Source of the DNA: Acidobacteriota bacterium
GTDB taxonomy: Bacteria > Acidobacteriota > UBA6911 > RPQK01 > JAJDTT01
Assembly (NCBI GenBank): GCA_965209055.1
Contig: OZ242374.1
Span: 2,144,001 to 2,208,000 of the forward strand
Length of the DNA stretch: 64,000 nt
Reading direction: 5' to 3'
Part shown: positions 41,115 to 58,985 of the stretch, in pieces
Layout: every line of letters begins with the position of its first letter
How positions within the stretch are numbered: position 1 is the first letter of the stretch
Made by a program: the position numbers and the translations under genes
Notes under the pieces: model-generated
Database searches by the model: none
What the model was told of the DNA's origin: nothing
The model's input: the letters and a program-made list of their open reading frames with translations, nothing else

Positions 41115-42646
41115 CCTCGCGTCCGGCACGGGGCTGGTTGTTGGCCGCCGGCCTGCTCTTCTGCGGGCTGTTTTCGACGGGCTTCCCGGTTCCCTCCGAA
41201 GTGCGGGAAGTGGGAAGCGAGCTCCAGCCCCTCTGGGACGACTGGCTGATCGAAAGCCTGGAGAACGTCCGGCATGTTCTTCACCGGCCGGAGCCGCGGG
41301 AGGTCGTTCTGCGGCGCGACCGTCCCTGGGAGGACCACGCCATCTACAACCCGGTGGTCATCAAGGACGGATACCGGTACCGGATGTGGTATCGGGCCCG
41401 GGCGGTGGAGAAACCGATCCTGACCGCCTACGCCGAGAGTCTGGACGGGATCCATTGGGTGAAGCCCAAGCTGGGCCTCATCGAGCACGACGGGTCGAAG
41501 GAGAACAACCTCGTCTGGCCGGTGCCCGGGGGCATCGGCCGGTCCGTCTCCGTCGTCAAGGACGGAAACCCCGAGGCGGACCCTCAGGAGCGCTACAAGG
41601 CCATCACCAACCAGGGGACCAAGCTGCCTTCGGGCCGGGAGATCGCCCTGCTCTACGGCCTGGTCTCCCCCGACGGCCTGCGCTGGCGCATGGTCCGGCA
41701 GGGACCCATCGTCGTGCCGCCGCTGGGAGACGGAGCCTTCGATTCCCACAACATCATCCTGTGGGACGAAGCCCGGGGGTGCTATTCCATCTACGCACGG
41801 GGCTGGTACCGCCGCGGAAGCAGGCCGCTGGACGGAAAGACGGTGGGCAGGGGACCCTACCATGTCCTGATTGGGCGCCCCTCGGGATTGGTCGAGAAAA
41901 TCAGCCGGATCCGGGACATCCGCCGTTTCACTTCAAAGGACTTCCGGGACTGGTCCGAGCCCGAGTACATCGGTCTCGGCGAGACGCCCCTGGAGCACCT
42001 CTACAAGAACTCGGCCGTGCCCTACTATCGGCGTCCCGACCTGATCCTCATGTTCCCGAAACGGTATCACCCCACCCGGAAGTTTCACGCCGACTGGCCG
42101 GCGCCCGGACAGTCGGAGGTGGTTTTCATGTTCAGCCGGGACGGCGTGAATTTCGACCGGCGCTTCATGGAGGCGTTCCTCCGGCCCGGCCCGAACCCCT
42201 TGAACTGGCATGAACGGGCCATCCAGGTGGGCCCGACGCTGGTCCCCACGGCACCGGGCGAGATGTCCCTGTACTACGCCGAGCAGGGCAAGACGGACCA
42301 GGTCCGGATCCGCCGCGCGGTGCTTCGTGAGGATGGATTCGTGTCCCTTCGCGCTCCCTACCCGGGAGGCGCCGTTCGAACCCGGCCCCTCGCGTTCTCC
42401 GGGTCGAGGCTGTTCCTCAACTACTCGACCTCCGCAGCCGGAAGCATCCGGGTGGAGATCCAGGATGAGGCGGGCAATCCGTTCCCGGGCTACGCCTTTG
42501 AGGATTGCCCGGAGATCTACGGGGATGAGATCGAAGGGGAGGTGAAGTGGCGGGATGGAGCCGGAGTGGAGAAACTCGCGGGCCGAACCGTCCGCCTCAA
42601 GATCTCCATGAGAGACGCTGACCTCTACTCCCTGCGTTTCCGGTAG
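41111..42646 (+). CDS. Secreted beta-propeller glycosidase-like protein (paralog 3)
   Basis: ATGA overlap with the sialidase; homologous to 34415-35974 (FDSHN, MFPKR, RRFMEAFLRPG). Confidence 0.75.
   Translation: MTSRPARGWLLAAGLLFCGLFSTGFPVPSEVREVGSELQPLWDDWLIESLENVRHVLHRPEPREVVLRRDRPWEDHAIYNPVVIKDGYRYRMWYRARAVEKPILTAYAESLDGIHWVKPKLGLIEHDGSKENNLVWPVPGGIGRSVSVVKDGNPEADPQERYKAITNQGTKLPSGREIALLYGLVSPDGLRWRMVRQGPIVVPPLGDGAFDSHNIILWDEARGCYSIYARGWYRRGSRPLDGKTVGRGPYHVLIGRPSGLVEKISRIRDIRRFTSKDFRDWSEPEYIGLGETPLEHLYKNSAVPYYRRPDLILMFPKRYHPTRKFHADWPAPGQSEVVFMFSRDGVNFDRRFMEAFLRPGPNPLNWHERAIQVGPTLVPTAPGEMSLYYAEQGKTDQVRIRRAVLREDGFVSLRAPYPGGAVRTRPLAFSGSRLFLNYSTSAAGSIRVEIQDEAGNPFPGYAFEDCPEIYGDEIEGEVKWRDGAGVEKLAGRTVRLKISMRDADLYSLRFR
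42596..42646 (+). repeat. 51-bp direct repeat copy 1 (3' end of the propeller gene)
   Basis: 44/51 identical to 56783-56833. Confidence 0.85.
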
Positions 42647-42811
42647 GAGGGGGGACATTCTTGTCCCCCGTTCCTCATCACTCAAGGAGCGGGGGATTTC
42701 CTATCCCGACTGTTCCACAGTCAACAACTACCAAAGGTTAATTTTTTCAATGGATTACCGGGTTCTTCGCCGAATCGGTAAAGTGGTTGACTCCCAACGT
42801 TCGACGTTCTG

Positions 42812-42830
42812 AACAGGCAACAAACAGGCA
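42812..42830 (+). repeat. Putative integrase arm-type site (left)
   Basis: GGCAACAAACAGGCA at 42816-42830 is identical to 55766-55780; internal 11-bp tandem; ~110 bp inside the left core. Confidence 0.65.
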
Positions 42831-42908
42831 GCAGGATTCGGCTCGTCAAAGCCGCGACATCCTTCTTCGTTCCGATCAGCCCTACCGGACAGAACCGCTT
42901 AATATACT

Positions 42909-43088
42909 TTATACAGATCTAATCCAATCCCAGAGCGTCGCCCGCTTTCTCCCGCCAACGATCCGGCGACATCTCATCCGCCCGCCACGCTTGGAGGCGA
43001 CCTGTTCCAACCGGGGCTTTGTTTCCTGAAGACAGCGCCGGTAGAAGTCCTCGACCCTCACTAGCCGGGACTCGTTCTTCCTCTTCAT
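42909..43088 (-). CDS. Small basic protein, possible excisionase (may be decayed)
   Basis: 59 aa, very basic, GRMRCRRIVGG wing-like motif; GGGAG SD; lies at the element end. Confidence 0.3.
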   Translation of the reverse strand: MKRKNESRLVRVEDFYRRCLQETKPRLEQVASKRGGRMRCRRIVGGRKRATLWDWIRSV

Positions 43089-43173
43089 GCTCCCGGTCGG
43101 TCTGTTGGAACTCCCCGCTGCCGTCCAGTTTGCTGGACTTGTGTGCAATGGCGGGCGCGATCATCCTTGGGGA

Positions 43174-43548
43174 TCATCTCGAGCATGCGTTATAGACTCT
43201 ACTCAATTCTTCGCTCCAACACCTGAGCTCATCGTCCGCATCGCGGCCCAGCAATCGGGCTAACGTGAAAAAGCCGGGTCCGGGTCTCCCATCGCGCTTG
43301 TTCACGACCACGGCGGAGAGCATCCCTCGGCCTGCTTCATTCTCTTCAGTCGAGATATCCTCGATCATCTGTGCCAAGCGAGGGTCATGGGGCTCGAGAG
43401 TGCAACTCTTAATCTTTTTGTATGCGAGGTCTGAATAAGTAATCACCCTGGCAGCCTGAGCCACAGCAATCATGGCTTCGCGAGCTTCTTTCTTCGCCGC
43501 GTTCCAGGCGATTTCAGTAAATCCATGATTGAAGGTTTCACGCTTCAT
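43174..43548 (-). CDS. Conserved hypothetical (ITYSDL..LSAVVV..PGxGFF domain)
   Basis: AGGGAG SD; 124 aa; motif pattern recalled from restriction/HNH-associated N-terminal domains. Confidence 0.65.
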   Translation of the reverse strand: MKRETFNHGFTEIAWNAAKKEAREAMIAVAQAARVITYSDLAYKKIKSCTLEPHDPRLAQMIEDISTEENEAGRGMLSAVVVNKRDGRPGPGFFTLARLLGRDADDELRCWSEELSRVYNACSR

Positions 43549-44081
43549 GTGCTTCTCCCTTCTGGCAGATCGGACGACTGTCTCGGGGCAGCGTCCATTG
43601 ACGGCCCCTTTCTCTTGATACCCTCCCCCCCGATGAGCGTTTACGGTAACGGACTGAACCGGCAATAATTCGCGGCCCCCGCCCCGGCTTGCAGGATGCC
43701 CGTAGCGCTTCCGGATCTGGCACGCCAGTGCCAAGAGTCGGGCCAATTCGCCGGTCCCGGACCGACTTCGCCCGCTCCCGAGAAACGAGACGCTCTCAGG
43801 AATCCTGTGTTGGCTTAGCGCGTCCGGACTGCGGAGTCCGCAGCACTGGGAACGCTGTGGGACGGTCACTGAAACCGTCTGGCGCCGGAGGGACCGTAGA
43901 TTACCCCCAAGCTGCCAACGTGACTTTCAAGCGAGGAAGGCGAATAAGACCCAAGTTGTCGAAGAAGCAGAATCACCTACCAATGAAGCCTGACTGAACC
44001 GCCTCCACCTAATGCTTGGTTGTCAGCTTGACTTCGTAGGTTGTGTTCCGCTCCAAGTCTGCAAATCAGCATATGGCCTAA

Positions 44082-44318
44082 CTAACCGACACGGACTTCT
44101 TCGTTGTCCAAATGTGATTGCACAATCGCCCCATTATGATCAGCCACGGCCTTTTCTACGAGCGACCTAAAGTTCATTGCGTCGTTTGGATTGTCGAAGC
44201 TTACTCTGCATGAATAACGGTAATCTACCTTTGTTACCGTCTCTGTCTGGCTTAGCTTTGCCTTCCCAAGCCCCGGTATGCCCAATTCGATCTCGGATTT
44301 TTTTTCTTTGAGGCTCAC
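44082..44318 (-). CDS. Hypothetical protein
   Basis: 78 aa, lower GC; same frame as the upstream ORF. Confidence 0.45.
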   Translation of the reverse strand: MSLKEKKSEIELGIPGLGKAKLSQTETVTKVDYRYSCRVSFDNPNDAMNFRSLVEKAVADHNGAIVQSHLDNEEVRVG

Positions 44319-44324
44319 GGCAAC

Positions 44325-45098
44325 TCACCCGAGTCTTTCGACCGCTTTTTGGCCTTCGTTTCCAGTGTGTACTACATGGAACAACACACCCGGTGGATGT
44401 TGCACAATGACGCCAAGAGGGGTTTCCGAAAAAAAAGCGGAGGCCATGTCTTTTTCATACTTGAGACGCGCCCCTTTAAACATCTCGGAAGTGGTCGGGC
44501 TTGGCAGTCTTCGTATCGCTTCAGATAGCTCATTGCTTCGCCCAGTAATTTCCCCAACGATGTCGTAGTTGTTCGCGGCGAACATAAACGGAATAGGCTT
44601 CATCGAAGATTGAAAACCATAGCTTCTTGGGCTGTTTTTGATATGCCAGCGAGTTTGGATGCGATCAGTATCCGTTTGCCATCCGACGTAAATGTGTGTA
44701 GAGCAGAAGTGGGTATTATGATGATGGAACGTGAGGACCGTCGACTCTGTAAGCCCTTGGTCGTCGCCCTTTCCTTCGATCGAATGTTGATGGGGAGAGA
44801 AATTCTGATAGAACCAAGATGATCCGCCTGACGCGCCGATTCCACCGACGATATCCAACAAGGCATCTTCCACATTATCTGCTGGACCTACGACGGGCGT
44901 ACCCTTCGGGACACGTTCCTGCAAGATAGCCCTTCTTTCATTCACCAACGCGATAAGCCCATTTTCCGTCCTCCCACCTATCGCCAAGGTGACTCGTTTA
45001 CTGAACGGGCGTTCCCCTACGTCCACGACAGACGGCACATCAGGCTGCTTCGATGAGAACCGTATGCTAGCCAAGGTTTTTCTCCTTTCTTGGCACAA
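44325..45098 (-). CDS. Hypothetical protein
   Basis: 257-aa ORF in a lower-GC segment; start uncertain. Confidence 0.55.
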   Translation of the reverse strand: MCQERRKTLASIRFSSKQPDVPSVVDVGERPFSKRVTLAIGGRTENGLIALVNERRAILQERVPKGTPVVGPADNVEDALLDIVGGIGASGGSSWFYQNFSPHQHSIEGKGDDQGLTESTVLTFHHHNTHFCSTHIYVGWQTDTDRIQTRWHIKNSPRSYGFQSSMKPIPFMFAANNYDIVGEITGRSNELSEAIRRLPSPTTSEMFKGARLKYEKDMASAFFSETPLGVIVQHPPGVLFHVVHTGNEGQKAVERLG

Positions 45099-46411
45099 GC
45101 AAGGTGCAGTGTAGTCCCTCCAGTCAGCCCGTGGAGGTCCCCAGATCGATCATGTTCCCCATTCTATCATTGGGGGTGCAGCGCTTGGGGCAGTTTATCC
45201 TAGCGGATCGTAGCGTCCGTGGTCTCCACGGGCCCTTCCCTAGGGATCAATGAGAAGTGAGCGACTCCAAACAGGGAAAATAGTATATCAGCCCAGCCCG
45301 ATGGGGAAGTGCTGTGGGTGCCGCCGTCCCTCAGTGGAGCGCTACCCCCTCATGTCCTATGCTGGTCTGGTTCCCGTACAGGTGTTGGCGGCCATGTGAA
45401 AGTACAGGAAAAGTGGCCGTCGAAAATGCCAAGCCTCAAGAGTGTGACAGATTGATGGCTGGACCGCAGGATTTGCGTGTCCGGGAGGGAGGCCGGCGGG
45501 GTCCATTGGCAACCGTTGACAAAAGTAGAAGAGCACTCCATCGGGATGCCCATCAGCGACTCTACGACTTGGGGGTCGACCAAGTCGTCGGGATCGAGGG
45601 ACAAGGAAGTTCCGCCGTATCGATCCGGGAGTTGAAGGACTACTCCGTCTGCTGGCATCCAACCCCAGCGCTCCCTTCGTTTCTGTGGGAATGTGTCCAT
45701 GAGTTTCGAGCAAGCGGATCCGCAAGGACGGGCAACACCAATTCCTATTGAGGACAAGGGGTCCCAGGGAAGGTTTCCCCGGCAAGAGCTTTCATAGAGG
45801 GAAAGCAGGCCTCGCCCCATTCTCTCCCGTCACGGGCCAGGAGCACAAAAAGTATCTCTTGTATTTCATATCGTAATTGTAGGGAAACGTACGGCTTGTG
45901 AGACGTCCCCGGAGACCCGCGGGTCTCCAGGGCGTGGCTGGCCGGCCGCGAGGACCGGGCGCTGGAGCAACCCGAAACGGTCCGGCGCCACTGGGTCAGG
46001 GCCTCCGGCCCCAAGGTTGGCACACGGGATCGTTCGACGGCCAGAGAGTCCGCCAGGATCAAACGCGCCGTACTCATGGCAAACACGGCCGTCGTCAATT
46101 CCTACGGCGGCGTGCCGCCCGCGTTGAAACGGGCCATTGTTGTTGGGGAACCGTTGGCCAAGGGCTGTTCCTTCGGAGTCGTGATTGACGGCGACTCGAC
46201 TTGGCGGTCGATACGATTGCTGGGGACTCATTTCGGAGGGGCACAAAAGGACTTTCGCGCCCGATCCGGGATGTGAATGGGACATAGGGGGTGGATTCAC
46301 AAAAAGCGGTCCCGGTGACTCACAAATGCACTCTCCCCGATCTTGTTTCCTTTCAGTCAGTTACGGCCCAATTTCCGGCCGCCGGGTGGCCGCACGAGGA
46401 AAATGGAGGTG

Positions 46412-46509
46412 GACGGGAGCGACCCCCCCTTTTTGTTGCCCGGTGCGGGCGCGGGGGTGTTGCGCAATTCACATTTGCGCAGCACCCCCTGGGGGGGGTC
46501 GCTCCCGTC
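46412..46509. other. Branched palindromic structure (candidate origin or structured RNA)
   Basis: 18-bp perfect IR enclosing a 5-bp hairpin and a 15-bp hairpin. Confidence 0.75.
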
Positions 46510-46817
46510 TCAATTATCCCTGCCGGGAAGGCTCCAATAAGGCTGGCTCTGGCAACCCGTGTAGTCAATCCTCTATGGGCCACCGCAGGCCACCGGTCTT
46601 GCTGATCCGGGGTGGAAAGTGGATCTGGTTGAACGCTCGATCTGGAATGGGAACCAGGACTTCGTTGAAGCGCTGGAGCAGAATGCCGATAGACAAATGA
46701 GATTAGCTGACCTTGGCGATCGGTGACGAATTGGGAAAGGTCCAAGTGGTACTCCGCCTTGCTCCGGTGAGCCGAATTGGCCAAGATTGACGTTTGACAT
46801 CAACTGTTACGAGTCGC

Positions 46818-47002
46818 TTGCGGGTGCTAAGCGCGAAAGACGCGAAGTACGGCTTCGGCCGACTCATCGACCTCGCCCGCGCAGCGCCCGTCACAGTGAC
46901 CAAGCACGGGCGGTTGTCGTAGTGCTCTCGGTCTAGGAATATGAGCGGCTGAAGGCGCTCAACACACCTGAGACGCGCCCGGGAACGGTGGAACGGGAAT
47001 GA
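46818..47002 (+). pseudogene. Phd/YefM antitoxin pseudogene
   Basis: LRVLSAKDAKYGFGRLIDLARAAPVTVTKHGR, then a frameshift, then VVVVLSV*EYERLKAL. Confidence 0.8.
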
Positions 47003-47033
47003 CGTGGGACAGAACCGGAGGCCGCTGAACCGG

Positions 47034-49361
47034 ATGGACAAGCGAGACCTCTCAGAACGCGACATCTGCATGAAGTTCATCACGCCCGCCCTGCGCAATG
47101 CCGGGTGGGACGAGATGTCTCAGATTCGCGAGGAGGTGAGCTTCACCAAGGGCCGCATCATCGTGCGGGGCAAGCTGGTCGCACGCGGCAAGGGTAAACG
47201 CGCCGACTACATCCTTTACTTCAAGCCAAACATCCCGATCGCGGTGATCGAGGCGAAGGACAATTCCCACAGCGTCGGCGACGGCATGCAGCAGGCTCTG
47301 GATTACGCTGAGATCCTGAACGTTCCCTTCGCGTTCTCTTCGAACGGCGACGGCTTCGTGTTCCACGACCGTACGGGGGCCAGTACACCGCTTGAGTCGA
47401 ACCTTTCTCTCGAAGACTTTCCGTCACCCACCGACCTGTGGGCGCGCTATCGGGTCTGGAAGAGCCTGACGCCGGAAGCCGAGGAGATCGTCCTTCAAGA
47501 CTATTTCGAGGACGGCAGCGGCAAGACGCCGCGCTATTACCAGGTTAACGCCATCAACGCGACAATCGAGGCCATCGCCAAGGGGCAGGACCGTATCCTG
47601 CTCGTCATGGCCACGGGTACGGGCAAGACGTACACTGCCTTCCAGATCATCTGGAGGCTGTGGAAGGCGCGCCGCAAGAGACGCATCCTGTTCCTCGCCG
47701 ACCGCAACGTGCTCGTCGACCAGACGATGACGAACGATTTCCGCCCGTTCGGCGGCACGATGACCAAGCTCTCGCGCCGCATCGACCCCGCCTACGAGGT
47801 CTATCTCGGCCTCTATCAGGCAATCACCGGACCGGAGGAACGCCAGAAGACGTACCGAAAGTTCTCGCCGGAGTTCTTCGATCTGATCGTGATCGACGAA
47901 TGTCACCGGGGCAGTGCCGCCGCCGATTCGGCATGGCGCGAGATCCTCGAGTACTTCTCCTCCGCAACCCAGATCGGCCTGACCGCCACGCCGAAGGAGA
48001 CGAAGTACGTCTCCAACATCGCCTATTTCGGGAAGCCGGTTTACTCCTACTCCTTGAAACAGGGCATCCAAGACGGTTTCCTCGCGCCCTACAAAGTGGT
48101 CAAGATCCATATCGATCGCGACATCGAAGGCTACCGCCCAGAGAAGGGCAAGCTCGACCGCGACGGCGCGAAAATCGAGGACCGCATCTACAACCTTACG
48201 GACTTCGACCGGACGCTGGTCATCGACGAACGAACAACAGTCGTCGCGCATAAGGTCACGACTTTCCTGAAGGAGAGTGGCGACCGCTTCCAGAAAGCGA
48301 TCATCTTTTGCGTCGATCAGGAACACGCCGCGCGGATGCGCCAGGCACTGATCAACGAGAACGCGGATCTCGTCGAGGGCAACTCACGTTACGTCATGCG
48401 GATCACCGGTGGCGATGCTGCGGGACAGGCCGAGCTCGGGAACTTCATCGACCCGGAATCGAGATATCCTGTTCTGGTCACCACGTCGCGCCTGCTATCC
48501 ACCGGCGTCGATGTCCAGACTTGCCGGTTGATCGTTCTCGACCGAAAGGTGGGGTCGATGACCGAGTTCAAGCAGATCGTCGGACGCGGTACCCGCGTTC
48601 ACGAAGACACAGGAAAGTTCTACTTCACGCTTATCGACTTTCGGGGGGCCACCGATCATTTCGCCGACCCGGATTTCGACGGCGAGCCGGCCCAGATCTA
48701 CAGGCCGGAAGAAGGCGGTCCGATCGTGCCACCCGATGGGCCGGATACTGGCGGCGACGGGAACGGCGAGGTGGATACACCGCTGCCTGGACCACAGAAG
48801 AAAGTCTATGTCGATGGTGTTGAAGTGGCCATCGTCGCCGCCCGGGTGCAATACCTCGACGGGCACGGCAAGCTGGTTACGGAGTCGTTACGTGATTTCA
48901 CGAGGAAAGCCCTGCGCCGGCGCTTCGCGAGCCTTGACGACTTCCTGAACCGTTGGAACGCCGCAGAGCGCAAGCAGGCGATCATTGATGAAATGGAGGC
49001 CGAGGGCCTGCCGCTGACCGTGATCGCCCAAGAGCTGGACAAGGATCTCGACCCCTTCGATCTCGTCTGTCACATCGCCTTCGACGCCAAACCGCTGACC
49101 CGCCGCGAGCGAGCCGAGAACGTCAAGAAGCGGGATGTGATTACGAAATACGGAGGTCAGGCTCGCGCTGTGCTGGACGCGTTGCTCGACAAGTACTCTG
49201 ACGAGGCTATGCTAAATCTGGACGACGCCAACGTGCTGAAGATCCCGCCCCTCGATAGCCTCGGAACGCCGGTCGAACTGGTCCGCGCCTTCGGCGGGAA
49301 GCCCGGTTTTCAGCAGGCCGTGCATGATCTTCAGTCCGCTCTCTACCGGGAGATCGCCTGA
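47034..49361 (+). CDS. hsdR: Type I restriction enzyme R subunit (EcoAI-like, type IB)
   Basis: LSERDIC, ADY..VIEAK, ATGTGKT, DECHR, GLTATP, QIVGRGTR. Confidence 0.95.
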   Translation: MDKRDLSERDICMKFITPALRNAGWDEMSQIREEVSFTKGRIIVRGKLVARGKGKRADYILYFKPNIPIAVIEAKDNSHSVGDGMQQALDYAEILNVPFAFSSNGDGFVFHDRTGASTPLESNLSLEDFPSPTDLWARYRVWKSLTPEAEEIVLQDYFEDGSGKTPRYYQVNAINATIEAIAKGQDRILLVMATGTGKTYTAFQIIWRLWKARRKRRILFLADRNVLVDQTMTNDFRPFGGTMTKLSRRIDPAYEVYLGLYQAITGPEERQKTYRKFSPEFFDLIVIDECHRGSAAADSAWREILEYFSSATQIGLTATPKETKYVSNIAYFGKPVYSYSLKQGIQDGFLAPYKVVKIHIDRDIEGYRPEKGKLDRDGAKIEDRIYNLTDFDRTLVIDERTTVVAHKVTTFLKESGDRFQKAIIFCVDQEHAARMRQALINENADLVEGNSRYVMRITGGDAAGQAELGNFIDPESRYPVLVTTSRLLSTGVDVQTCRLIVLDRKVGSMTEFKQIVGRGTRVHEDTGKFYFTLIDFRGATDHFADPDFDGEPAQIYRPEEGGPIVPPDGPDTGGDGNGEVDTPLPGPQKKVYVDGVEVAIVAARVQYLDGHGKLVTESLRDFTRKALRRRFASLDDFLNRWNAAERKQAIIDEMEAEGLPLTVIAQELDKDLDPFDLVCHIAFDAKPLTRRERAENVKKRDVITKYGGQARAVLDALLDKYSDEAMLNLDDANVLKIPPLDSLGTPVELVRAFGGKPGFQQAVHDLQSALYREIA

Positions 49362-49364
49362 GAG

Positions 49365-50816
49365 ATGTCCGTCAGCACACTCGTCAAGTCGATTCAGAAC
49401 ATCATGCGCCAGGACGTGGGCGTCGATGGCGATGCGCAGCGCATCAGCCAACTGTGCTGGATGTTCTTCCTCAAGATCATCGACGATCAAGACCAGGAGC
49501 TCGCAGTTCTCAAAGACGGATACCGTTCGCCCGTACCTGACCCTTTGCAATGGCGGAGCTGGGCCGGCGACCCGGAAGGCATCACGGGCGATGATCTGCT
49601 CGACTTCGTCAACGGCGATCTCTTTCCGAAGCTGAAGGAACTTCCGCGCAGGGCCGGCCCTCGCGCCAGCGTCGTGCGCGACGTGTTCGAGGACGCATAC
49701 AACTACATGAAGTCCGGCCAGCTGCTGCGGCAGGTCGTCAACAAGATCAACGGAATCGACTTCAACAACCTGACCGACCGGCGGCACTTCGGAGACATCT
49801 ACGAGCAAGTCTTGAACGATCTGCAATCGGCCGGCAATGCGGGCGAATACTACACGCCACGCGCCGTGACCTCGTTCATGGCCCAAATGATCGACCCGAA
49901 GCCGGGCGAGACCCTGCTCGATCCGGCGTGCGGCACGGGCGGGTTCCTCACCTGCGCCGTCCGGCACATGCGCGAACGGTACGTGAAGCGGCCGGCGGAC
50001 GAGGCGAGAATGCAAACCTCCCTTCGGGCGGTAGAGAAGAAGCCGCTTCCCCACATGCTTGCTGTCACGAACATGCTCCTGCACAGCATCGAGGATCCGT
50101 CCTTCCTGAGCCACGACAACACGCTGGCGCGCCCCTACATCTCCTGGGGCCGGGACGAGCGCGTGGACATCGTGCTGACCAATCCGCCGTTCGGCGGCAA
50201 GGAGGAGGACGGCATCGAGTCGAACTTCCCGAAGCACTTCCAGACGCGCGAGACGGCGGACCTGTTTCTCGCCCTGATCATCCGACTTCTGAAACTCGGC
50301 GGCAGGGCTGCCGTGGTCCTTCCTGACGGCTCCTTGTTCGGCGAGGGTGTCAAGACACGGCTCAAAGAGCACCTGATGAGGGAATGCAACCTTCACACCA
50401 TCGTGCGCCTGCCGAACTCGGTGTTCCGTCCCTACGCTTCGATCGGGACGAACTTGTTGTTCTTCGAGAAGGGAAAATCGACCAAGGACGTCTGGTTCTG
50501 GGAACATCTCGTTCCCGAAGGCCAGAAGGCCTATTCCATGACCCGGCCCATACAGCTGGAGCATCTCAAGGACTGTGCCGCTTGGTGGGGCGGGGAGGAA
50601 CGTAAGAGCCGCGAGGAAGGTGAACGAGCTTGGAAGGTGACTGCCGAAGAGATCACGGCGCGCGGCTACAACCTCGACATCAAGAATCCTCACACCGAAG
50701 AAGATGACCTTGGCGATCCCGAGACGCTTCTGGAGGAGCTGACGCGTGCCGAGACCGAGGTGATATCAGTACGAAACCAGTTGAAAGGAATCCTGACAGA
50801 GGCGCTGTTGCGGTGA
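49365..50816 (+). CDS. hsdM: Type I R-M methyltransferase subunit (m6A)
   Basis: GEYYTPR, DPACGTGG, NPPF. Confidence 0.95.
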   Translation: MSVSTLVKSIQNIMRQDVGVDGDAQRISQLCWMFFLKIIDDQDQELAVLKDGYRSPVPDPLQWRSWAGDPEGITGDDLLDFVNGDLFPKLKELPRRAGPRASVVRDVFEDAYNYMKSGQLLRQVVNKINGIDFNNLTDRRHFGDIYEQVLNDLQSAGNAGEYYTPRAVTSFMAQMIDPKPGETLLDPACGTGGFLTCAVRHMRERYVKRPADEARMQTSLRAVEKKPLPHMLAVTNMLLHSIEDPSFLSHDNTLARPYISWGRDERVDIVLTNPPFGGKEEDGIESNFPKHFQTRETADLFLALIIRLLKLGGRAAVVLPDGSLFGEGVKTRLKEHLMRECNLHTIVRLPNSVFRPYASIGTNLLFFEKGKSTKDVWFWEHLVPEGQKAYSMTRPIQLEHLKDCAAWWGGEERKSREEGERAWKVTAEEITARGYNLDIKNPHTEEDDLGDPETLLEELTRAETEVISVRNQLKGILTEALLR

Positions 50817-52609
50817 ATGCCGACCGCCTTTTCGCTCTCTACGACCGTGTTGCCGAGGCCCCGGCCGCCGTTGACCGCCTGCGCCGCTTCGTGCTGGATC
50901 TCGCTGTGCGCGGCAAGCTGGTGGAGCAGGATCCGGTGGATGAACCGGCATTGGAATTGCTGAACCGGATTGATAAGGCGAAAGATCTACTGGCAGGATT
51001 CAACCGGGCTAAGAAATCACGAGCACTACCACCGATTAACCCGAGGGAGGTCCCGTTCGAGTTGCCACCAGCTTGGCAATGGGTGTATTTCGGGGACATC
51101 GTCGATTTTTCCGCAGGCCGGACGCCCCCACGGAAAGAACCATCGTATTGGAATACCGGTGATTTCCCATGGATCAGCATCGCCGACATGGCGGACGGAA
51201 AGACCCTTCGATCTACGAAGGAGACTGTAAGCACCGAGGCCCGTCTCAATGTCTTTAAGCGTGAGCCGGAGCCACCCGGCACAATGATCATGAGCTTTAA
51301 GCTCACAATTGGAAAGATCGCCAAGCTGGGCATCCCCGCGTTTCATAACGAGGCAATTATTTCCATTCGGCCACATGTCGGTGAGCTAAACTCCTACCTA
51401 TTCAAGGTTCTACCTGATCTTGCACGGGGCGCCAATACCAAAGGAGCAATCAAGGGCGCAACGCTTAACCGCAAGTCACTTTCGACCATAATGGTCCCGC
51501 TCCCACCCCTAGCTGAGCAGCGGCGCATCGTTGCGAAGGTCGATGAACTCATGGCGGTTTGCGACCGGTTGGAGGAAACACGCACAGCGCGGGAGGAAAC
51601 CCGCGATCGGCTGACCAAGGCCAGCCTGACTCGTCTGATCGAACCCGACATCGACGCGCCGACGTTTCGTTCTCACGCGCACTTTGCTGTTGATGCCCTG
51701 CCAGCGCTGACTGCCCGCGCCGATCAGATCAAGCATCTGCGTCAGACGATTCTCAACCTCGCCGTGCGGGGGAAGCTCGTGGAGCAGGATCCGTCGGATG
51801 AACCGGCGTCAGAACTGATCAAGCGGATCGATGCCGAAAAGCGACGGCTAGTAAAGGCGGGCGTGATTAGGAAGCCGAAACCACTCCCGTCTCTCGAAGG
51901 CACCGAAACCCCGTTCGATCTCCCAGAAGGATGGGCATGGACTCGGCTCGGCCACCTTAGTCAGTTCGTGACCAGCGGTTCTCGCGGTTGGGCTAAGCAC
52001 TATTCCGACCAAGGCGCGATCTTTGTTCGGATGGGGAATCTGTCCAAGGACCACTATCGCCTCCGCCTCGATCAAATCCAGCGGGTGAAGCCGCCGCTGG
52101 GTGGCGAGGGCACTCGAACCCGCTTGAAGGGTGGCGATATCCTCATCTCGATAACGGGCAACGTGGGGATGCTTGGGCTGATTCCAAAGGGGTTTGGTGA
52201 AGCGTACATTAACCAGCACACGGCTATGGTGCGCCCTATGCCCGAGATGAAGGGCCGCTACCTTGCGGAACTGTTCCGTTCGCCGTTCGCGCAGAAACAG
52301 TTCAACAAACCCCAGCGGGGCATCAAGAACAGCTTTCGGTTGACGGATGTGACCCAGCTCTCGATCCCCCTCCCGCCCCTCGCTGAGCAGCGCCGCATCG
52401 TTGCCAAGGTCGATGAACTCATGGCCCTCTGCGGTCGTATGGAGACCGGTCTCGCTGCCACAGATGGCACCCGTACTCGCCTTCTCGATTCCCTTCTACA
52501 TGACGCGCTGGCCTCCGCCGCGTACGAAACCGCGAAGACTACGAGGCCTGAAGCACGAAGTACTTGGCCCGAGAGGGCACGGAGCGGGGGTGTCCCATCA
52601 AGGAGTTAG
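50813..52609 (+). CDS. hsdS: Type I R-M specificity subunit
   Basis: Two TRDs; LAVRGKLVEQDP x2 and PLPPLAEQRRIVAKVDELM x2. Confidence 0.95.
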   Translation: MNADRLFALYDRVAEAPAAVDRLRRFVLDLAVRGKLVEQDPVDEPALELLNRIDKAKDLLAGFNRAKKSRALPPINPREVPFELPPAWQWVYFGDIVDFSAGRTPPRKEPSYWNTGDFPWISIADMADGKTLRSTKETVSTEARLNVFKREPEPPGTMIMSFKLTIGKIAKLGIPAFHNEAIISIRPHVGELNSYLFKVLPDLARGANTKGAIKGATLNRKSLSTIMVPLPPLAEQRRIVAKVDELMAVCDRLEETRTAREETRDRLTKASLTRLIEPDIDAPTFRSHAHFAVDALPALTARADQIKHLRQTILNLAVRGKLVEQDPSDEPASELIKRIDAEKRRLVKAGVIRKPKPLPSLEGTETPFDLPEGWAWTRLGHLSQFVTSGSRGWAKHYSDQGAIFVRMGNLSKDHYRLRLDQIQRVKPPLGGEGTRTRLKGGDILISITGNVGMLGLIPKGFGEAYINQHTAMVRPMPEMKGRYLAELFRSPFAQKQFNKPQRGIKNSFRLTDVTQLSIPLPPLAEQRRIVAKVDELMALCGRMETGLAATDGTRTRLLDSLLHDALASAAYETAKTTRPEARSTWPERARSGGVPSRS

Positions 52610-52666
52610 ACTCGCGGAGTACTCCCCACGTCCGGTCCGGCCGGATTGTTTTGCAAGGATAAGGCT

Positions 52667-53815
52667 ATGATTCGCGTTCCAGTGCCCCCTAAGATGCTTC
52701 GCTGGGCCTGCGAACGTGCCGGTTATGACGTGGCGCACCTTGCGGAACGCATGCCACAGCTTCGGGCCTGGGTCCGACGCGAGAGACAGCCGACGCTGAA
52801 GCAGTTGGAAAAGCTGGCCATAGCTACGCACACGCCCCTCGGCTACCTGTTACTCCCTGAGCCGCCGGAGGAACGCCTTCCGGTCCCGGATTATCGCACC
52901 GTGACGGGCGCTAGGCGAGACAGACCGAGCCCCGACCTGCTTGACACACTCTACACGATGCAACGCCGACAGGAGTGGCTGCGGGAGTCTCTCGTCGAGA
53001 ACGACGCGGAACCATTGGCGTTCGTTGGAAGCGCTCGTCTTGCCGATGATCCGGACGCTGTGGGTCAGGAGATGCGGCGGGCGCTCGGTCTCGATCATGG
53101 ATGGGCTGCGGGGGTCCGCACGTGGCAGGATGCCGTGAGCGAGTTGCGCCGGACGATTGAGCAGATCGGCGTGATGGCGGTGATCAACGGTGTGGTGGGG
53201 AACAACACGCATCGCCGGCTGAGCGTACAAGAGTTTCGCGGCTTCGCGCTCACCGATCCTTACGCGCCGCTGATCTTCGTGAACGGTGCGGATGCGAAGT
53301 CGGCGCAGATGTTCACGCTCGCTCACGAACTGGCTCATATCTGGCTTGGCACGGAGGGGCTCTCCGGCTTCGAGTCTCTTCTTCCAGGTGGTACGGATGT
53401 GGAGGACTGGTGCAATGTGGCGGCGGGCGAGTTCCTCGCACCGGAACGGGAACTCAGAGCGCGTTGGGGGCAAGTCAGACGGGAGGCGAGTCCCTTCCAA
53501 GAACTCGCTCGGACGTTCAAAGTGAGCCCTGTAGTTGCCGCACGCCGAACCTTCGACCTGAATCTCGTCGACCGCAACACCTTCTTCGATTTCTACAAGC
53601 TCTACGTCAATCGAGAACACAAGGCCGGCACGAAGTCGAGTGGGGGCGATTTCTACAACAACCAGAACACTCGTGTTGGCGAGTTCTTTGGGACCCAGGT
53701 GCTGCGCGCAGCGATGGAGGGCCGTATCGGTTTCAAGGAAGCCTATGACCTGACAGGACTGCGTGGGGGAACCTTTCAGAAGTACGCCAAGCGGCTGGGC
53801 GTGGATCTCCCATGA
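52667..53815 (+). CDS. XRE-HTH + ImmA/IrrE Zn metallopeptidase
   Basis: QPTLKQLEKLA HTH; FRGFAL..FTLAHELAH (HExxH). Confidence 0.9.
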   Translation: MIRVPVPPKMLRWACERAGYDVAHLAERMPQLRAWVRRERQPTLKQLEKLAIATHTPLGYLLLPEPPEERLPVPDYRTVTGARRDRPSPDLLDTLYTMQRRQEWLRESLVENDAEPLAFVGSARLADDPDAVGQEMRRALGLDHGWAAGVRTWQDAVSELRRTIEQIGVMAVINGVVGNNTHRRLSVQEFRGFALTDPYAPLIFVNGADAKSAQMFTLAHELAHIWLGTEGLSGFESLLPGGTDVEDWCNVAAGEFLAPERELRARWGQVRREASPFQELARTFKVSPVVAARRTFDLNLVDRNTFFDFYKLYVNREHKAGTKSSGGDFYNNQNTRVGEFFGTQVLRAAMEGRIGFKEAYDLTGLRGGTFQKYAKRLGVDLP

Positions 53816-54336
53816 TGGCGGATCGGACCTATCTCGTGGATTCGGATGTCTTCATCACGGCAAAGAATCTGTATTACTCGTTCGACATCTGCCCCGGTTT
53901 CTGGAAGTGCTTGGTTCACCACCACCGGGAAGGCCGAGTCTTCAGCGTCGACAGGGTACGCAGTGAACTCCTCGCGGGTCACAGGAAGGAGGATCTGGTC
54001 CGGTGGGTGAGGGACGTAGTCCCGAAGGGTTTCTTCCTCCCAGTGGACACCGGCGTGGTCGTTCGTGCGTATATGAACATCATGATGTGGGTCCAACGCC
54101 ATCCGAGATATTTTAACCATGCGAAGGCGAAGTTCGCGACGGGCGCGGACGGCTGGTTGGTCGCATACGCTCAGGTTCACGGCGCAACCATCGTCACCAA
54201 CGAGCAGAGTGCCCCGGAGTCCAGAAAGGAGATCAAGCTGCCCGATGTATGCGATCAGTTCAAAGTGCGGCGGGACAACACGTTTTCCATGCTTCGGGCG
54301 CTGGACATCCACTTCGATTGGGTGGGTGACCGCTGA
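53812..54336 (+). CDS. DUF4411 family PIN-like protein
   Basis: YLVDSDVFITAKNLYYSFDICPGFW..ADGWLVAYA..VTNE..KLPDVC. Confidence 0.85.
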   Translation: MMADRTYLVDSDVFITAKNLYYSFDICPGFWKCLVHHHREGRVFSVDRVRSELLAGHRKEDLVRWVRDVVPKGFFLPVDTGVVVRAYMNIMMWVQRHPRYFNHAKAKFATGADGWLVAYAQVHGATIVTNEQSAPESRKEIKLPDVCDQFKVRRDNTFSMLRALDIHFDWVGDR

Positions 54337-54719
54337 GCGAGTTGTTTCATCCGTAAGTTACCTTCGATCTCTCTCGTCTCAACTACCCCCCGTCTCCGGT
54401 AGATGCCCATCGTCGGAAAGATTCACCGATCGCCGGAGATATCCGCAGTCTCTCAAATCCTGACCCGATAATGGAGATTATGACCAGTGCGTACGCTTCT
54501 CCTGGATCGTACCTCAAGTATGCGAAGACTACCCCCTAAAATGGGGCCGACGGGAAGCGTGATGATGAAGGTGTACACAAGAGCGCGCCAGTGGAACAGC
54601 CAGAAAATCCGCACGCCTTACTCCAGGTGATTCCTCTCCAAAGTTTCCGCATTGTGACTTGGAGCCGTGGTACGATTCGCCCCACGGCGAAGAACCCGGA
54701 TCCGGAAAGGAGGAGATGC

Positions 54720-55805
54720 ATGGGCATCTATAAGGTGAAGGATCGCCGGGGGAGACGACGTTTCGTCGTCAGCAAGTACTGGCCGCACGGATCCGGTCGG
54801 CTTCGAATGTACGCCCCCAATTACCGAAGCGCACAGGCGCTTCAAACACGAATCGAGTCCAGCATCCTGGACGGCACATGGAAGCAACTCAAGCGGGAAC
54901 TCGCCGGTGGGAAACGCACCATCTGGACGGTCCGGAGCTTCTACGAGCGTTTTTTCGAGGAGTATTGCAAACCTCGTCTGCGCTGCTTGCGCCGCTACGC
55001 GCTCTCTTTCAATAGCCTCAACACCATGCTGGGGAACATTCCCCTGAAGGAGTTCCGACGCAAAGACCTGCACCGCTACGTCGCCAAGAGAAAGAAGCAA
55101 GTGCAGCCGGCCACGGTGAACCGCGACATTGCCGCCATCAGCAAGCTGTTTTCCTACGCGCTGGAGTGCGGGGAAGTGGACACGCACCCGCTGGTGAGAT
55201 TCCCCAAACTGAAGGAGCCCAAGAAGGTGTTCCGGCCTTTGACGGTTCAACAGTTCCGCGACCTGGTCGAGGCGGTGGACAACCCCTACCTGCAAGCTAT
55301 GGTTGCGGTGATCGGCGAGACGGGGATACGGAAAGGCGAAGCGTTGTCGCTCACCTGGAGCCGGGTGGACCTGAGTCGGCGGATGTTGTGGGTGGAGTTC
55401 ACCAAGGACGACGAGCCGAGGGAGATCCCGCTCTCGAAGTACGCCACGGGATATCTGGCCGGACTGGTTCGTTACCTGAACACTCCGTACGTCTTTGTCA
55501 ACAGCCGGACCGGAACAAGATGGGTGAATCCCGACAAGTCTCTACGTCGCGCGGCCGAGAGGGTGGGGTTGAAGGTCGGATTTCACGACCTGCGGCGATT
55601 CCGGTGCAGCCACTGGCTGATGCAGGGTGTGGACGTGAGGACGGTGCAGAAGCTGATGGGACACTCATCCATCAGCACGACGATGCGCTACGCGGGGTAC
55701 GTCAGTTCGCATGCGCTCGCAAGCATTCGAGAGGCACAGGCTACCGAAGACTCACAAACGCAACCGGCAACAAACAGGCAACGGGTCGGAAACAAGGGAC
55801 AATGA
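54720..55805 (+). CDS. Tyrosine recombinase/integrase
   Basis: PATVNR, TGIRKGE (R), FTK (K), FHDLRR (HxxR), LMGHS (H), TMRYA (Y); AGGAGG SD. Confidence 0.95.
   Translation: MGIYKVKDRRGRRRFVVSKYWPHGSGRLRMYAPNYRSAQALQTRIESSILDGTWKQLKRELAGGKRTIWTVRSFYERFFEEYCKPRLRCLRRYALSFNSLNTMLGNIPLKEFRRKDLHRYVAKRKKQVQPATVNRDIAAISKLFSYALECGEVDTHPLVRFPKLKEPKKVFRPLTVQQFRDLVEAVDNPYLQAMVAVIGETGIRKGEALSLTWSRVDLSRRMLWVEFTKDDEPREIPLSKYATGYLAGLVRYLNTPYVFVNSRTGTRWVNPDKSLRRAAERVGLKVGFHDLRRFRCSHWLMQGVDVRTVQKLMGHSSISTTMRYAGYVSSHALASIREAQATEDSQTQPATNRQRVGNKGQ
55762..55782 (+). repeat. Putative integrase arm-type site (right)
   Basis: AACCGGCAACAAACAGGCAAC, ~95 bp inside the right core. Confidence 0.65.
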
Positions 55806-55962
55806 TTAGAAGAAAAACTGGGATAAAGGGTTGAGAAGAAAGGATTATTCTTTTAGATCAGTTAGACAGAGCAGCGGATTTCCTACCCCCACTTCCGGTC
55901 CTCCATTTCCACATGCTCATTCCGCCGGGTGTTCGCTGACTCGCCGCCTGGAAAGCGGAATT

Positions 55963-56003
55963 TGTGTAGATCACTGTGTAATATAGTGTGTAGAGTGTGA
56001 CAC
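55963..56003 (+). promoter_or_regulatory. vapBC promoter/operator with repeated TGTGTA boxes
   Basis: TGTGTAGA, TGTGTAAT, TGTGTAGA, TGTGACAC directly upstream of the antitoxin ATG. Confidence 0.45.
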
Positions 56004-56004
56004 G

Positions 56005-56205
56005 ATGGCAACGAACCTTGGAATAGATCCGGATCTGCTCGAACAAGCCTTGGCGGTCAGTGGCGAAAAGACCAAGAAGGCCACCGTCAACCGCGCCTTG
56101 CGGGAATTCATTGCCCGCCGTAGTCAGGAACGACTGCTCGGTCTGTTCGGCACACTGGATTGGAACGACGACTACAACTACAAGCGCGAGCGTTCCCGTC
56201 AGTGA
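56005..56205 (+). CDS. vapB: VapB family antitoxin
   Basis: MATNLGIDPDLLEQAL..TKKATVNRALREFI. Confidence 0.9.
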   Translation: MATNLGIDPDLLEQALAVSGEKTKKATVNRALREFIARRSQERLLGLFGTLDWNDDYNYKRERSRQ

Positions 56206-56606
56206 ACCTGTTCGTGGATACGAGTGTCTGGTCTCTTGCACTCAGGCGTGATTCACCGCCGGAGGTTTCCGAGGTGCGGCGCCTCCGGAAAGCTCTCGTC
56301 GGGGGCACGGTTTACACGACTGGACTAGTGCTTCAGGAATTGTTGCAGGGTTTCCACGGTCCGCGCGCCCGGACACAGCTCATCGAGCGCTTCTCGGACA
56401 TGGCCATGATCGTGCCGACGCGCGGCGATCACATCTCCGCGGCCCGCCTGCGCAACGAATGCCGTCGCCGCGGAATACAGGTGGGAACCATCGATGCGTT
56501 GCTCGCCCAGCTCTGCATCAGCCACAAGCTCGTCATGTTGTCGACTGACCGGGATTTCAGTCATATCGCAACCTGCACGACACTTCGGCTGTGGGGGGCG
56601 AACTAA
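56202..56606 (+). CDS. vapC: VapC/PIN toxin
   Basis: FVDTSVW..QELLQG..TIDALLA..STDRDF; GTGA overlap. Confidence 0.9.
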   Translation: MNLFVDTSVWSLALRRDSPPEVSEVRRLRKALVGGTVYTTGLVLQELLQGFHGPRARTQLIERFSDMAMIVPTRGDHISAARLRNECRRRGIQVGTIDALLAQLCISHKLVMLSTDRDFSHIATCTTLRLWGAN

Positions 56607-56756
56607 CGAACCGCAGAGGTGACTCGCTCGTCGCCTGTTTCTTGTTCTCCTGGCACTCCATGCACCCATTTCGTTTTGTGATGGGTTGCTCGGGAGTGCG
56701 GCGGCAAGAAGGTCGCCGTTGCCCCAGTTTCGTTCCGGATTCCCCCAGACTCCCCC

Positions 56757-56833
56757 GGCAGGGAAATTCCCCACTCCTCCTACTCAAGATCTCCGTGGGA
56801 GACGCCGACCTCTACTCCCTTCGTTTCCAGTGA
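56757..56833 (+). repeat. Inverted REP-like copy followed by 51-bp direct repeat copy 2
   Basis: GGCAGGGAAATTCCCCACTCC(TCCTA), then a copy encoding LKISVGDADLYSLRFQ* at 56783-56833. Confidence 0.8.
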
Positions 56834-56963
56834 ACGGGAGCGATTGGCGGAAGGGCGCTGAACCGGCCAGTGGTGCGGGTATCCCGATCGCCAGCCAAGT
56901 GGCGGCGACTGCGCTGTGTACGGTGGCGTCGCAGGTGGCCCGCCGATGGGGCGGCCCGATCCG

Positions 56964-57917: not shown

Positions 57918-57942
57918 GTCTCAATTGTGGGAAATAACCGGG

Positions 57943-58875: not shown

Positions 58876-58985
58876 CGAACTGGCGCTATCCCGAGGAAAT
58901 GGAAATCGGTCTTTCGGAGGTCCACGGCGACCGGTTCCCCTGATCGGTTCAGCATGTCAACGGATTCGAGGCACCGGAGACGAGA

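Follow-up and report, generated by a model that had tools for sequence, protein, structure and literature searches.

We describe here a ~13-kb island carrying restriction-modification (R-M) genes that occupies positions 42704–55885 of a 64,000-nucleotide stretch of DNA from an Acidobacteriota bacterium (assembly GCA_965209055.1, contig OZ242374.1, positions 2,144,001–2,208,000 of the forward strand; hereafter referred to as the window). The whole genome is a single metagenome-assembled contig of 6.08 Mb. The island is, with high probability, an integrative element that is moved by its own tyrosine integrase, targets hairpins resembling repeated extragenic palindromes (REPs) and descends from integrases that target tRNA-Arg genes. 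The same genome contains 25 complete elements of this kind, the island included, at 25 different loci, each of them splitting a GGAG-type hairpin; three REP-like families are involved.

Ends of the island and the empty site in a relative

An earlier inspection of the window (hereafter referred to as the preliminary description) had proposed that the island uses a REP-like hairpin as its chromosomal attachment site (attB). The 25-nt direct repeat from which this proposal started was confirmed at 42687–42711 and 55869–55893, with 21 of the 25 positions identical, as was the identical 15-mer, GGCAACAAACAGGCA, noticed about 100 bp inside each end. The two copies of the 15-mer (Table 1) lie 113 nt (left) and 99 nt (right) inward of the loops defined below, and their similarity extends to 24 nt at 88%. 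Both ends also have in common the 10-mer GGATTTCCTA (42694–42703 and 55876–55885), which occurs 11 times genome-wide (6.08 Mb, both strands), mostly in hairpins or element ends. The composition-based expectation, computed for a neighbouring 10-mer, is ~1.4 per strand, so that GGATTTCCTA is enriched; the preliminary description had named a frequency no higher than chance as a possible objection. A chance origin of the end repeats is excluded because 24 further complete elements of the same genome share the end structure. The GC content falls from 0.66 in the flanks to 0.50–0.62 within the island.

The integrase gene is intact, as had been claimed: its open reading frame (ORF), 54591–55805, is uninterrupted and matches PF00589 at 93.8 bits (cut-off 27.1) over residues 217–368 of the long ORF. 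The probable start is at 54720, and the family alignment of the integrases begins at the Met of MGIYKV in every copy. When aligned with a solved XerC-like protein, the segments GIRKGE, HDLRR, GHSS and MRYAG correspond to GLRVSE, HQLRH, GHSN and QIYTK, respectively; we take them to contain the catalytic Arg, His-x-x-Arg, His and Tyr residues. Two profiles of the N-terminal core-binding (SAM-like) domain fell just short of their thresholds (PF24624, 25.3 bits against a cut-off of 27; PF02899, 21.7 bits against 22.3), and a sequence match to IntI4 spans only 56 residues.

Orthologues of the gene upstream of the island are found in eight genomes of the same genus, with 86–93% nucleotide identity. 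In the seven congeners that were read onward, the orthologue of a Kelch-repeat gene (window 58986–60662) follows only 60–1200 bp downstream, and the segment 42647–58974 is therefore a variable hot spot between two convergent genes. In one of these relatives, G001, the stop codon and a first hairpin are followed by an intact second hairpin, having an 8-bp stem (AGCGGGGG/CCCCCGCT) and an 8-nt loop (TTTTCCTA), and then by vapBC, which is 88% identical to window 55941–56609; integrase and R-M genes are both missing there. The window splits a hairpin of this G001 type, with the 5′ half and the loop at 42686–42703, and the loop, the 3′ half and the same downstream bases at 55879–55897. The G001 hairpin is the empty site of the window island, and this orthologous island-free site, together with the 25 replicate elements described below, bears out the proposal of a REP-like hairpin as attB.

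Four other elements were also examined for empty sites, by searching five congeners for the outer left flank of each. At the locus of E1126164D (target type D; the types are defined below), G001 likewise keeps an intact type-D hairpin and the same flanks, the left and right flanks being 73 nt apart; in G002 and G003 the flanks are 48–62 nt apart and the hairpin is wholly missing. The flanks of E3710019A (type A) are 55–83 nt apart in four of the five congeners, which have hairpins of another type there. For E4496682B (type B), the orthologous hairpin has the same stem and flanks and other loops (ATCCCT, ATTCCT or TTTCCT). At the locus of E835658C the congeners hold arrays of other hairpins, and no clean empty site could be aligned. 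It follows that the relatives lack the elements at all three alignable loci.

A family of elements in split hairpins

Near-full-length copies of the integrase number 26 in the genome (89–95% amino acid identity), in addition to 21 shorter matches, and all 26 are open from the Met of MGIYKV. The 150 nt of the left arm (42704–42854) are found ~30 times and pair with an integrase on the same strand in 25 cases, giving elements of 2,723–25,107 nt; the 26th integrase copy runs off the end of the contig record and is not counted among the complete elements. The common layout comprises the 150-nt left arm, a structured block of ~335 nt, the integrase and a tail of ~110 nt 3′ of the integrase, which ends in a short core beyond which the copies diverge. 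The homology of the window island to the other elements consists of three blocks (42704–42854, 46199–46532 and 54660–55878), and five minimal elements (2.7–2.8 kb, including the one at the contig end) are made up of the conserved blocks only, with no convincing second gene. Other ORF clusters that seemed common to all elements were rejected, since they are the integrase or the block read in alternative frames. Thus the sole gene universal to the 25 elements is that of the tyrosine integrase, and not one for a DDE/DEDD transposase of the kind used by REP-targeting insertion sequences (ISs).

Two of the elements, each 2,807 nt long and located at different loci with different flanks, are 100% identical over 2,779 nt. 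The arm motif GGCAACAAACAGGCA is present in 20–24 of the 25 left arms and in 22–25 of the right arms. In short-read contigs of a source-like sample (Logan contigs from four runs of one sample), the left arm, the block and the integrase have 3–30 times the depth of the flanks. Some joints in these contigs (43022–54661, 46427–54663 and others, with sides of 21–35 letters) were considered as deletions and rejected, since they fit shorter copies of the family. Eleven further runs contained 5–9% of the sampled words and contribute nothing to these results.

At the left junction (attL) the host 5′ half-stem is followed by the 7-nt loop and then by the constant element sequence TCCC[A/G]AC...; at the right junction (attR) the constant sequence ...GACAGAGCA-N-CGGA is followed by the same loop and the host 3′ half-stem. 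Four target types can be distinguished. Type A, which includes the window island (five copies), has the loop TTTCCTA (TTTCCAA in one copy) and the stems GGGGG/CCCCC, and type B (eight complete copies) has the loop CTGTTAG and the stems GGGGGGA/TCCCCCC. Type C (seven copies, loop CTAACAG) is the type-B hairpin entered from the opposite side, and type D (five copies) has the loop TTTCCAA (TTTCTAA in one copy) and the stems GGGCGA/TCGCCC. In all, near-identical integrases use at least eight different cores, counted as stem plus loop sequences.

The loops at attL and attR are the same in 24 of the 25 elements, the exception being a one-base slip in the register of the anchor, with the same 11-nt core on both sides. 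When a loop of 7 or 8 nt was allowed, the outer half-stems paired perfectly over at least 4 bp in 24 elements and over at least 5 bp in 23 (median 6). Half-stems combined across classes as a control reached 5 bp in 23% of 350 pairs, a rate that is high because all classes consist of G-runs and C-runs. The loop marks the exact limit of inter-element homology at either end, with different flanks outside it; the outer half-stems covary with the host flank, and the inner halves do not change. In type A, three of the five copies have T (attL) and A (attR) immediately before the loop, and all five have T (attL) and C (attR) immediately after it; on the assumption of a classical mechanism, the exchange would therefore be confined to the 7 nt. 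The rejoined outer flanks of the window island do form a GGAG-type hairpin, as the preliminary description had it, although of a subfamily different from the hairpins at 42646 and 20466 with which it had been grouped. ARAGORN found no tRNA at eight hairpin-type right ends and none within the window; a tRNA gene does not serve as attB here.

Relation to tRNA-Arg integrases and to host repeats

Close homologues of the integrase number 26 in the genome of the window (G000), ~8 in G004 (10 matches in all, including a more divergent copy and fragments), one or two each in G005, G007 and G008, one in G003 and none in G001. The right ends in G004, G005 and G007 stop in half-hairpins with the loop/stem variants CTTTCCT, CTTTTAG, TTTCTAG and CTTCCAG; in one congener, eight right ends beyond the 25 of G000 terminate in the same kind of half-hairpin. 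More distant relatives have a different neighbour. The integrases of G003 (84% identity) and of G035 and G010 (73%) are followed by a complete tRNA-Arg gene in the same orientation, with the anticodon TCT or TCG; the same tRNA follows in reverse the copies of G012 and G020 (49–53% identity), and its 3′ half only follows that of G009. In G003, positions 1–42 of the tRNA are repeated 47 kb away on the same strand. The G003 element is a tRNA-Arg island of the ordinary kind, inserted in the anticodon loop and with the 5′ half of the tRNA gene in its own attachment site (attP).

The tails of the hairpin elements retain a resemblance to this arrangement. Their alignment with tRNA-Arg sequences runs through the D arm and the 5′ strand of the anticodon stem as far as the loop, beyond which the similarity is lost. 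In the window, the tail contains the D-arm-like AGATCAGTTAGACAGAGC followed by GCGGA, the 5′ strand of the anticodon stem; the acceptor and D stems have decayed. There are two mismatches in seven positions between the type D loop (TTTCCAA) and the tRNA loop (CTTCTAA). In a maximum-likelihood tree (41 integrases), the first lineages to branch off are G012 and G009, followed by G010 and G035, then by G003 and then by the hairpin-associated clade of 35 copies (support 98/90), which is nested in tRNA-Arg-targeting lineages; the tree was rooted at its midpoint, and its direction rests on the three successive outgroups, all at tRNA-Arg. The hairpin clade has two branches, one with the D types and one with A, B and C. 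The sequence relationships thus point to a tRNA-anticodon-arm integrase that was retargeted to REP hairpins and then underwent an IS-like burst.

Two of the host hairpin families are as numerous as REPs (~100 or more palindromes per genome). The pattern GGGGAC-N4-7-GTCCCC has 111 sites in the genome, eight of them with a TGTTA loop, and GGCGAT-N3-7-ATCGCC has ~145 sites, 79 of them with a TTCCA loop. GGAG precedes most such hairpins, some of which stand in tandem arrays. Type-D hairpins were counted 7, 42, 58, 43 and 27 times in five congeners, compared with 0 for a reversed-pattern control. Among G000 and G001–G005, the TGTTA (type B/C) hairpin is found in G000 (8 free and 15 occupied sites), G001 (17) and G003 (1); it seems that attP cores follow whichever repeat subfamily is plentiful locally. 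No integrase copy was found in G001 (E up to 1e-60), and G002 holds just a broken one. Since hairpins are abundant in genomes devoid of an (intact) integrase, they are independent of the elements.

Several observations concern the hairpins themselves. A tandem array at ~5836877–5837800 consists of at least 12 units of 82 bp, each with a GGGCGATTTCCTATTCGCCC hairpin, as in a BIME-like cluster. The hairpins often begin with TAGGAG (for instance at window 42644–42672 and 20466). A TAG is overlapped by 40 of 139 GGAG-hairpins, and in 24 of these the TAG closes a frame of at least 100 codons; the stop codon of an upstream gene often comes from the repeat or borders on it. At orthologous intergenic sites of congeners the hairpins are polymorphic: one is present in G000 and G001 and missing in G002 and G003, and at another site the stem is retained and the loop differs among species. 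The genome has two Y1_Tnp ORFs (29.7 and 36.8 bits; cut-off 23). One of them, an IS200-like Y1 transposase ORF (PF01797, 29.7 bits; L175:1006–1764, minus strand), has three REP-type (type-D) hairpins just upstream (L175 1800–1990), the outermost of which holds the right end of element E1143861D. The proximity of a Y1 ORF to type-D hairpins fits a REP/RAYT system, without proving one.

Proposed mechanism, competing explanations and related systems

We propose the following mechanism. The integrase would bind the arm-type sites (GGCAACAAACAGGCA), one per arm and ~100 nt from the core, as well as two inverted core half-sites around the 7-nt overlap. The attP core would be a degenerate anticodon arm of tRNA-Arg, with a 5-bp stem and a 7-nt loop; the dyad core noted in the preliminary description stands, and its interpretation as an imperfectly dyad attP is amended accordingly. 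The chromosomal partner would be a GC-rich REP-like hairpin with a matching 7-nt loop. Strand exchange within the loop, presumably catalysed by the integrase, would split the hairpin, place its 5′ half-stem at attL and its 3′ half-stem at attR, and duplicate the loop. Ancestors of the element would have inserted into the anticodon loop of tRNA-Arg, with the 5′ half of the tRNA in their attP, and in this genus the ‘anticodon arm’ of attP would have changed to match several REP families. Such retargeting could have provided many targets per genome and allowed an IS-like rise to ~26 copies with mostly anti-phage cargo, and the elements may still be active.

It is also conceivable, with a likelihood that we place somewhat below even, that the choice of target is written mainly in the DNA of the element (the 7-nt loop of attP and a short stem) and hardly in the protein. 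If so, the former anticodon arm of the tRNA needs only a few base changes for near-identical integrases to be redirected to an abundant REP family of the host, and defence islands in effect become self-multiplying, insertion-sequence-like elements. A bolder addition to this idea is that the structured block is a required cofactor or a transfer signal of the element.

Certain results weigh against the retargeted integrase as the mover of these elements, or limit its reach. No excisionase or other shared gene was found among the elements, the minimal ones carrying the integrase alone. The preliminary description had predicted a circle joining 55885 to 42704; inter-element homology starts and stops exactly at these positions, but neither a circular form of the island nor its excision joint (~42703 to ~55886) was found in the read-derived contigs. 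The assembly is a single-contig metagenome-assembled genome with 7.4% estimated contamination, and the copy number rests on this assembly and on depth ratios. The exact pre-insertion site is documented for two elements only, the window island included; at two of the four other loci, the congeners have hairpins with other loops or stems, or the region is unalignable. The type-A hairpin subfamily of the window island is rare, with five occupied sites and ~2–3 free look-alikes. Hence the multicopy target envisaged for this island in the preliminary description holds for the family, with its 25 loci, but not for the island's own low-copy subfamily, the large pools belonging to sister types. Finally, the integrase tree is not clean by target class, as B and C are intermixed and one A-type copy falls inside D; this leaves two readings, a target set by the DNA and not by the protein, or recombination among the elements.

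Two competing explanations place the ends differently. The real island could be the larger segment between two 54-nt repeats (42591–42644 and 56778–56831; 87%), inserted at the 3′ end of the upstream gene, the 25-nt repeat then representing two unrelated look-alike REPs. The outer repeat is longer than the inner one and brackets the region too, the low GC content reaches ~56.5 kb, and all of 42647–58974 is absent or variable in congeners. This explanation is nevertheless very improbable: homology to the other 24 elements is limited to 42704–55885 and does not reach the outer repeat, no other element has an outer repeat of such a kind, and G001 has vapBC at the same place beside an intact hairpin, with neither integrase nor R-M genes. 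The outer repeat is probably the trace of a separate, older insertion at the same hot spot between the convergent genes. Alternatively, the half-hairpins could be terminal inverted repeats that belong to the element and are carried along with it, insertion not being REP-specific. Every copy does end in G-rich and C-rich half-stems, as it would with ends of its own. We regard this as the least credible of the explanations considered, given that the empty orthologous site holds an intact hairpin for two elements, that only the outer half-stems, and not the invariant inner halves, vary with the host flank, and that solo hairpins occur in hundreds, also in integrase-free genomes.

The remaining explanations accept the hairpin as the target. 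It might be recognized not as a duplex but in folded single-stranded form, as a hairpin that is extruded or exposed during replication, in the manner of integron attC sites. Near-identical integrases use at least eight stem/loop sequences that share only a GC stem and a 7–8-nt loop geometry, and the target hairpins are strong. On the other hand, both junctions resemble classical duplex products with a duplicated 7-nt overlap, the ancestors act classically on tRNA genes, and the mv4 integrase is described as using a duplex 7-7-7 site that tolerates core variation (bioRxiv 10.1101/2023.11.06.565760); folded-strand recognition seems improbable, if far less so than the two explanations above. Slightly greater, though still low, is the likelihood that the copies are relics of a burst now over, spread further as fixed islands by homologous recombination or duplication. 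The contigs hold no excision joint, and decayed pieces are many (the 21 shorter integrase matches, solo left arms and 33 block copies outside complete elements). Opposed to this are the 26 open integrase genes, the pair of elements that is 100% identical at two loci with different flanks, and a copy number that differs sharply among congeners, from 0 to 26. An integrase-driven element targeting REP-like hairpins stays the preferred explanation.

Among known systems, the closest are the tRNA islands with an anticodon-centred attP (Islander class A; Williams 2002, as cited in PMC4383910), which likewise have a tyrosine integrase beside attP, a crossover in the 7-nt loop between symmetric stems and a tRNA fragment in attP, the counterpart here being the tail, which corresponds to the 5′ half of tRNA-Arg up to the loop. 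The outgroups of the present integrase family are ordinary tRNA-Arg islands, of the minority type that displaces a 5′ fragment. According to Table 1 of PMC4383910, 159 of 3919 islands (4%) displace a 5′ fragment, 2083 in all are anticodon-centred, and island-bearing genomes have a mean of ~3 islands. Unlike class A islands, the elements here do not target a tRNA gene, the tRNA part of their attP is decayed, their target is multicopy and ~26 of them occur in one genome. Their choice of target is shared with the REP-targeting ISs (IS1397, ISKpn1, IS621, ISPpu9/10, ISPa11, ISRm22 and others), which also insert into repeated extragenic palindromes and have several copies per genome. In the portions of the literature considered here (PMC1525189; PMC2817692), REP targeting is described for the IS3, IS110, IS4, IS256 and IS5 families only. 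These ISs use DDE/DEDD enzymes and have no cargo, in contrast to the tyrosine recombinase and the cargo of up to 25 kb of the present elements.

Integron integrases and their attC sites provide another parallel, as they too combine a tyrosine recombinase with an imperfect-palindrome partner read largely by its shape and with exchangeable cargo. Integron cassettes do not encode an integrase, and their recombination takes place between folded single strands and a fixed platform. Each element here, by contrast, has its own integrase and long arms, and moves as a whole. A precedent for retargeting through changes in the DNA site is the integrase of phage mv4, which, by the account in bioRxiv 10.1101/2023.11.06.565760, is heterobivalent, has a 7-bp overlap between 7-bp inverted half-sites and is unusually tolerant of changes in attB and in core attP. 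The natural target of mv4 is a single tRNA-Ser. RAYT/REP systems (REPtrons) resemble the host side of the present system, with REP-like hairpins in hundreds of copies, tandem arrays and a Y1 ORF beside type-D hairpins. RAYTs are thought to spread the REPs themselves, whereas the elements here land in REPs and encode no Y1 enzyme.

In the main texts of papers outside subscription journals, we found no description of a tyrosine integrase targeting REPs, and nothing relevant on islands associated with SMAG repeats. The elements appear to be classical integrase islands with a new, multicopy target class and a traceable origin. The usual view of site-specific integrases is that of enzymes with a single site, so that an island reaches one copy or at most a few in a genome. 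The present lineage would represent a natural, stepwise exit from a tRNA target to a multicopy repeat, as suggested by the outgroups at tRNA-Arg, the decayed tRNA half and the at least eight cores, and it offers a testable case of integrase retargeting that is of interest for genome engineering. It would also account for the accumulation of R-M and CRISPR-Cas modules in one genome, and would add tyrosine recombinases to the enzymes known to exploit REPs.

Cargo, structured block and neighbouring features

The features of the island and of its surroundings are listed in Table 1. The preliminary description had called it an R-M/toxin-antitoxin island; it does contain a complete type I R-M system as well as a pair of genes for an M78/HTH protein and a DUF4411 protein, possibly a two-gene module, while vapBC lies outside. 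To characterize the cargo of the family, we sampled 30 of 102 candidate ORFs of at least 180 amino acids, from 17 other elements. Fourteen of the 30 are defence genes, and at least one defence match was obtained in eight of the 17 elements. They comprise type I R-M subunits (in two more elements), an MmeI-like and a type ISP enzyme, two GmrSD proteins, two DNA methylases, and Cas1, Cas3-like and Cas_GSU0054 proteins; the rest are two reverse transcriptases, two other integrases, one DDE transposase, two LRR proteins, one fn3 protein and eight without a family. One further element carries the R-M system of the window island, and the R-M classes among the family cargo are types I, IIG, ISP and IV. 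‘Defence island’ is a fair name for the family.

Table 1. Coordinates of the island, its junctions and its surroundings (positions in the window)
Feature	Position	Strand	Remarks
Left flanking host gene, no Pfam family	40790..42646	+	Stop codon TAG overlaps the first hairpin
Unoccupied host hairpin, GGGGAC...GTCCCC family, loop ATTCTT	42648..42672	.	
attL, host side: GGAG, 5′ half-stem CGGGGG and loop	42686..42703	+	Intact orthologous hairpin in G001
7-nt overlap, loop TTTCCTA, left copy	42697..42703	+	
Conserved left arm (P′), starting with TCCCGACTG and containing the 15-mer	42704..42854	+	At least 15 other elements, 79–89% identity
Candidate arm-type site GGCAACAAACAGGCA, left copy	42816..42830	+	
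Small ORF, 81 amino acids, no family	42919..43164	-	Common to fewer than 5 other elements
Conserved structured non-coding block	46199..46532	+	All 25 elements
hsdR, type I restriction subunit	47004..49361	+	
hsdM, type I methyltransferase	49365..50816	+	
hsdS, type I specificity subunit, two target-recognition domains, internal repeats (D1, D3)	50813..52609	+	
HTH and M78 (ImmA/IrrE-like) peptidase protein	52646..53815	+	
DUF4411 protein	53812..54336	+	Overlaps the stop of the M78 gene
Tyrosine integrase, 361 amino acids from MGIYKV	54720..55805	+	ORF opens at 54591
Candidate arm-type site GGCAACAAACAGGCA, right copy	55766..55780	+	Lies within the final (C-terminal) codons of the integrase ORF
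Right arm tail (P)	55806..55878	+	Final ~35 nt: 5′ half of a tRNA-Arg, decayed
7-nt overlap, loop TTTCCTA, right copy	55879..55885	+	
attR, host side: 3′ half-stem CCCCC and ACTTCC	55886..55897	+	Followed by G001-orthologous sequence
vapB/vapC (PF09957, PF01850), outside the element	56005..56606	+	Same place in G001, where the island is absent
Duplicate (87%) of the final 54 nt of the left flanking gene	56778..56831	+	

Individual elements showed further features. E3924000C (L185:4648–11607) has Cas1, a Cas3-like helicase and a Cas_GSU0054 protein, that is, a CRISPR-Cas module on a hairpin-targeting island. A reverse transcriptase ORF of 499 amino acids (PF00078) adjoins the integrase in three elements (L192:9709–11208, L194:56–1555 and L195:56–1555), the sameness of the first two being judged by equal E-values and that of the third by length only; it may be a group II intron or a defence-associated reverse transcriptase. 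E3393526B (20.6 kb) contains two unrelated integrase genes (L186:5067–6062 and L186:8532–9899), one of them with Arm-DNA-bind_3, and large elements hold extra copies of the block in inverse orientation; the big elements are probably nested composites.

The block occurs once per element, in the same orientation as the integrase, in all 25 elements. Its 3′ boundary is sharp, and the sequence beyond differs among elements. The genome has 66 copies, 33 of them outside complete elements; the block was also found in G004, G007, G003 and G005, and not in G035. It folds into nested long hairpins and contains an 18-bp inverted repeat (46412–46429/46492–46509). RNAalifold gave 44 pairs, nine of them with a compensatory change. 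The covariation term is close to zero, a consequence of the high similarity among the copies; on the integrase strand, most copies have G-U at several positions. An Rfam scan of 42000–57500 (E up to 1) matched neither the block nor the tail. A role as a guide-like RNA was rejected, since the variable parts do not follow the target class. Possible roles of the block are those of an RNA, of a signal for transfer or replication, and of an insulator.

Around the island, the hot spot has other tenants, namely the outer 54-nt repeat, vapBC, and MBL-fold and membrane genes (56964–58875). A reverse-oriented hairpin at ~56745–56775 adjoins the second copy of the 54-nt repeat. In G001, vapBC stands between two direct copies of ~100 nt (L013 ~1285–1400 and ~2083–2200), each of which contains an intact hairpin and the 3′ end of the Kelch gene; it looks like the remnant of yet another integrated element.

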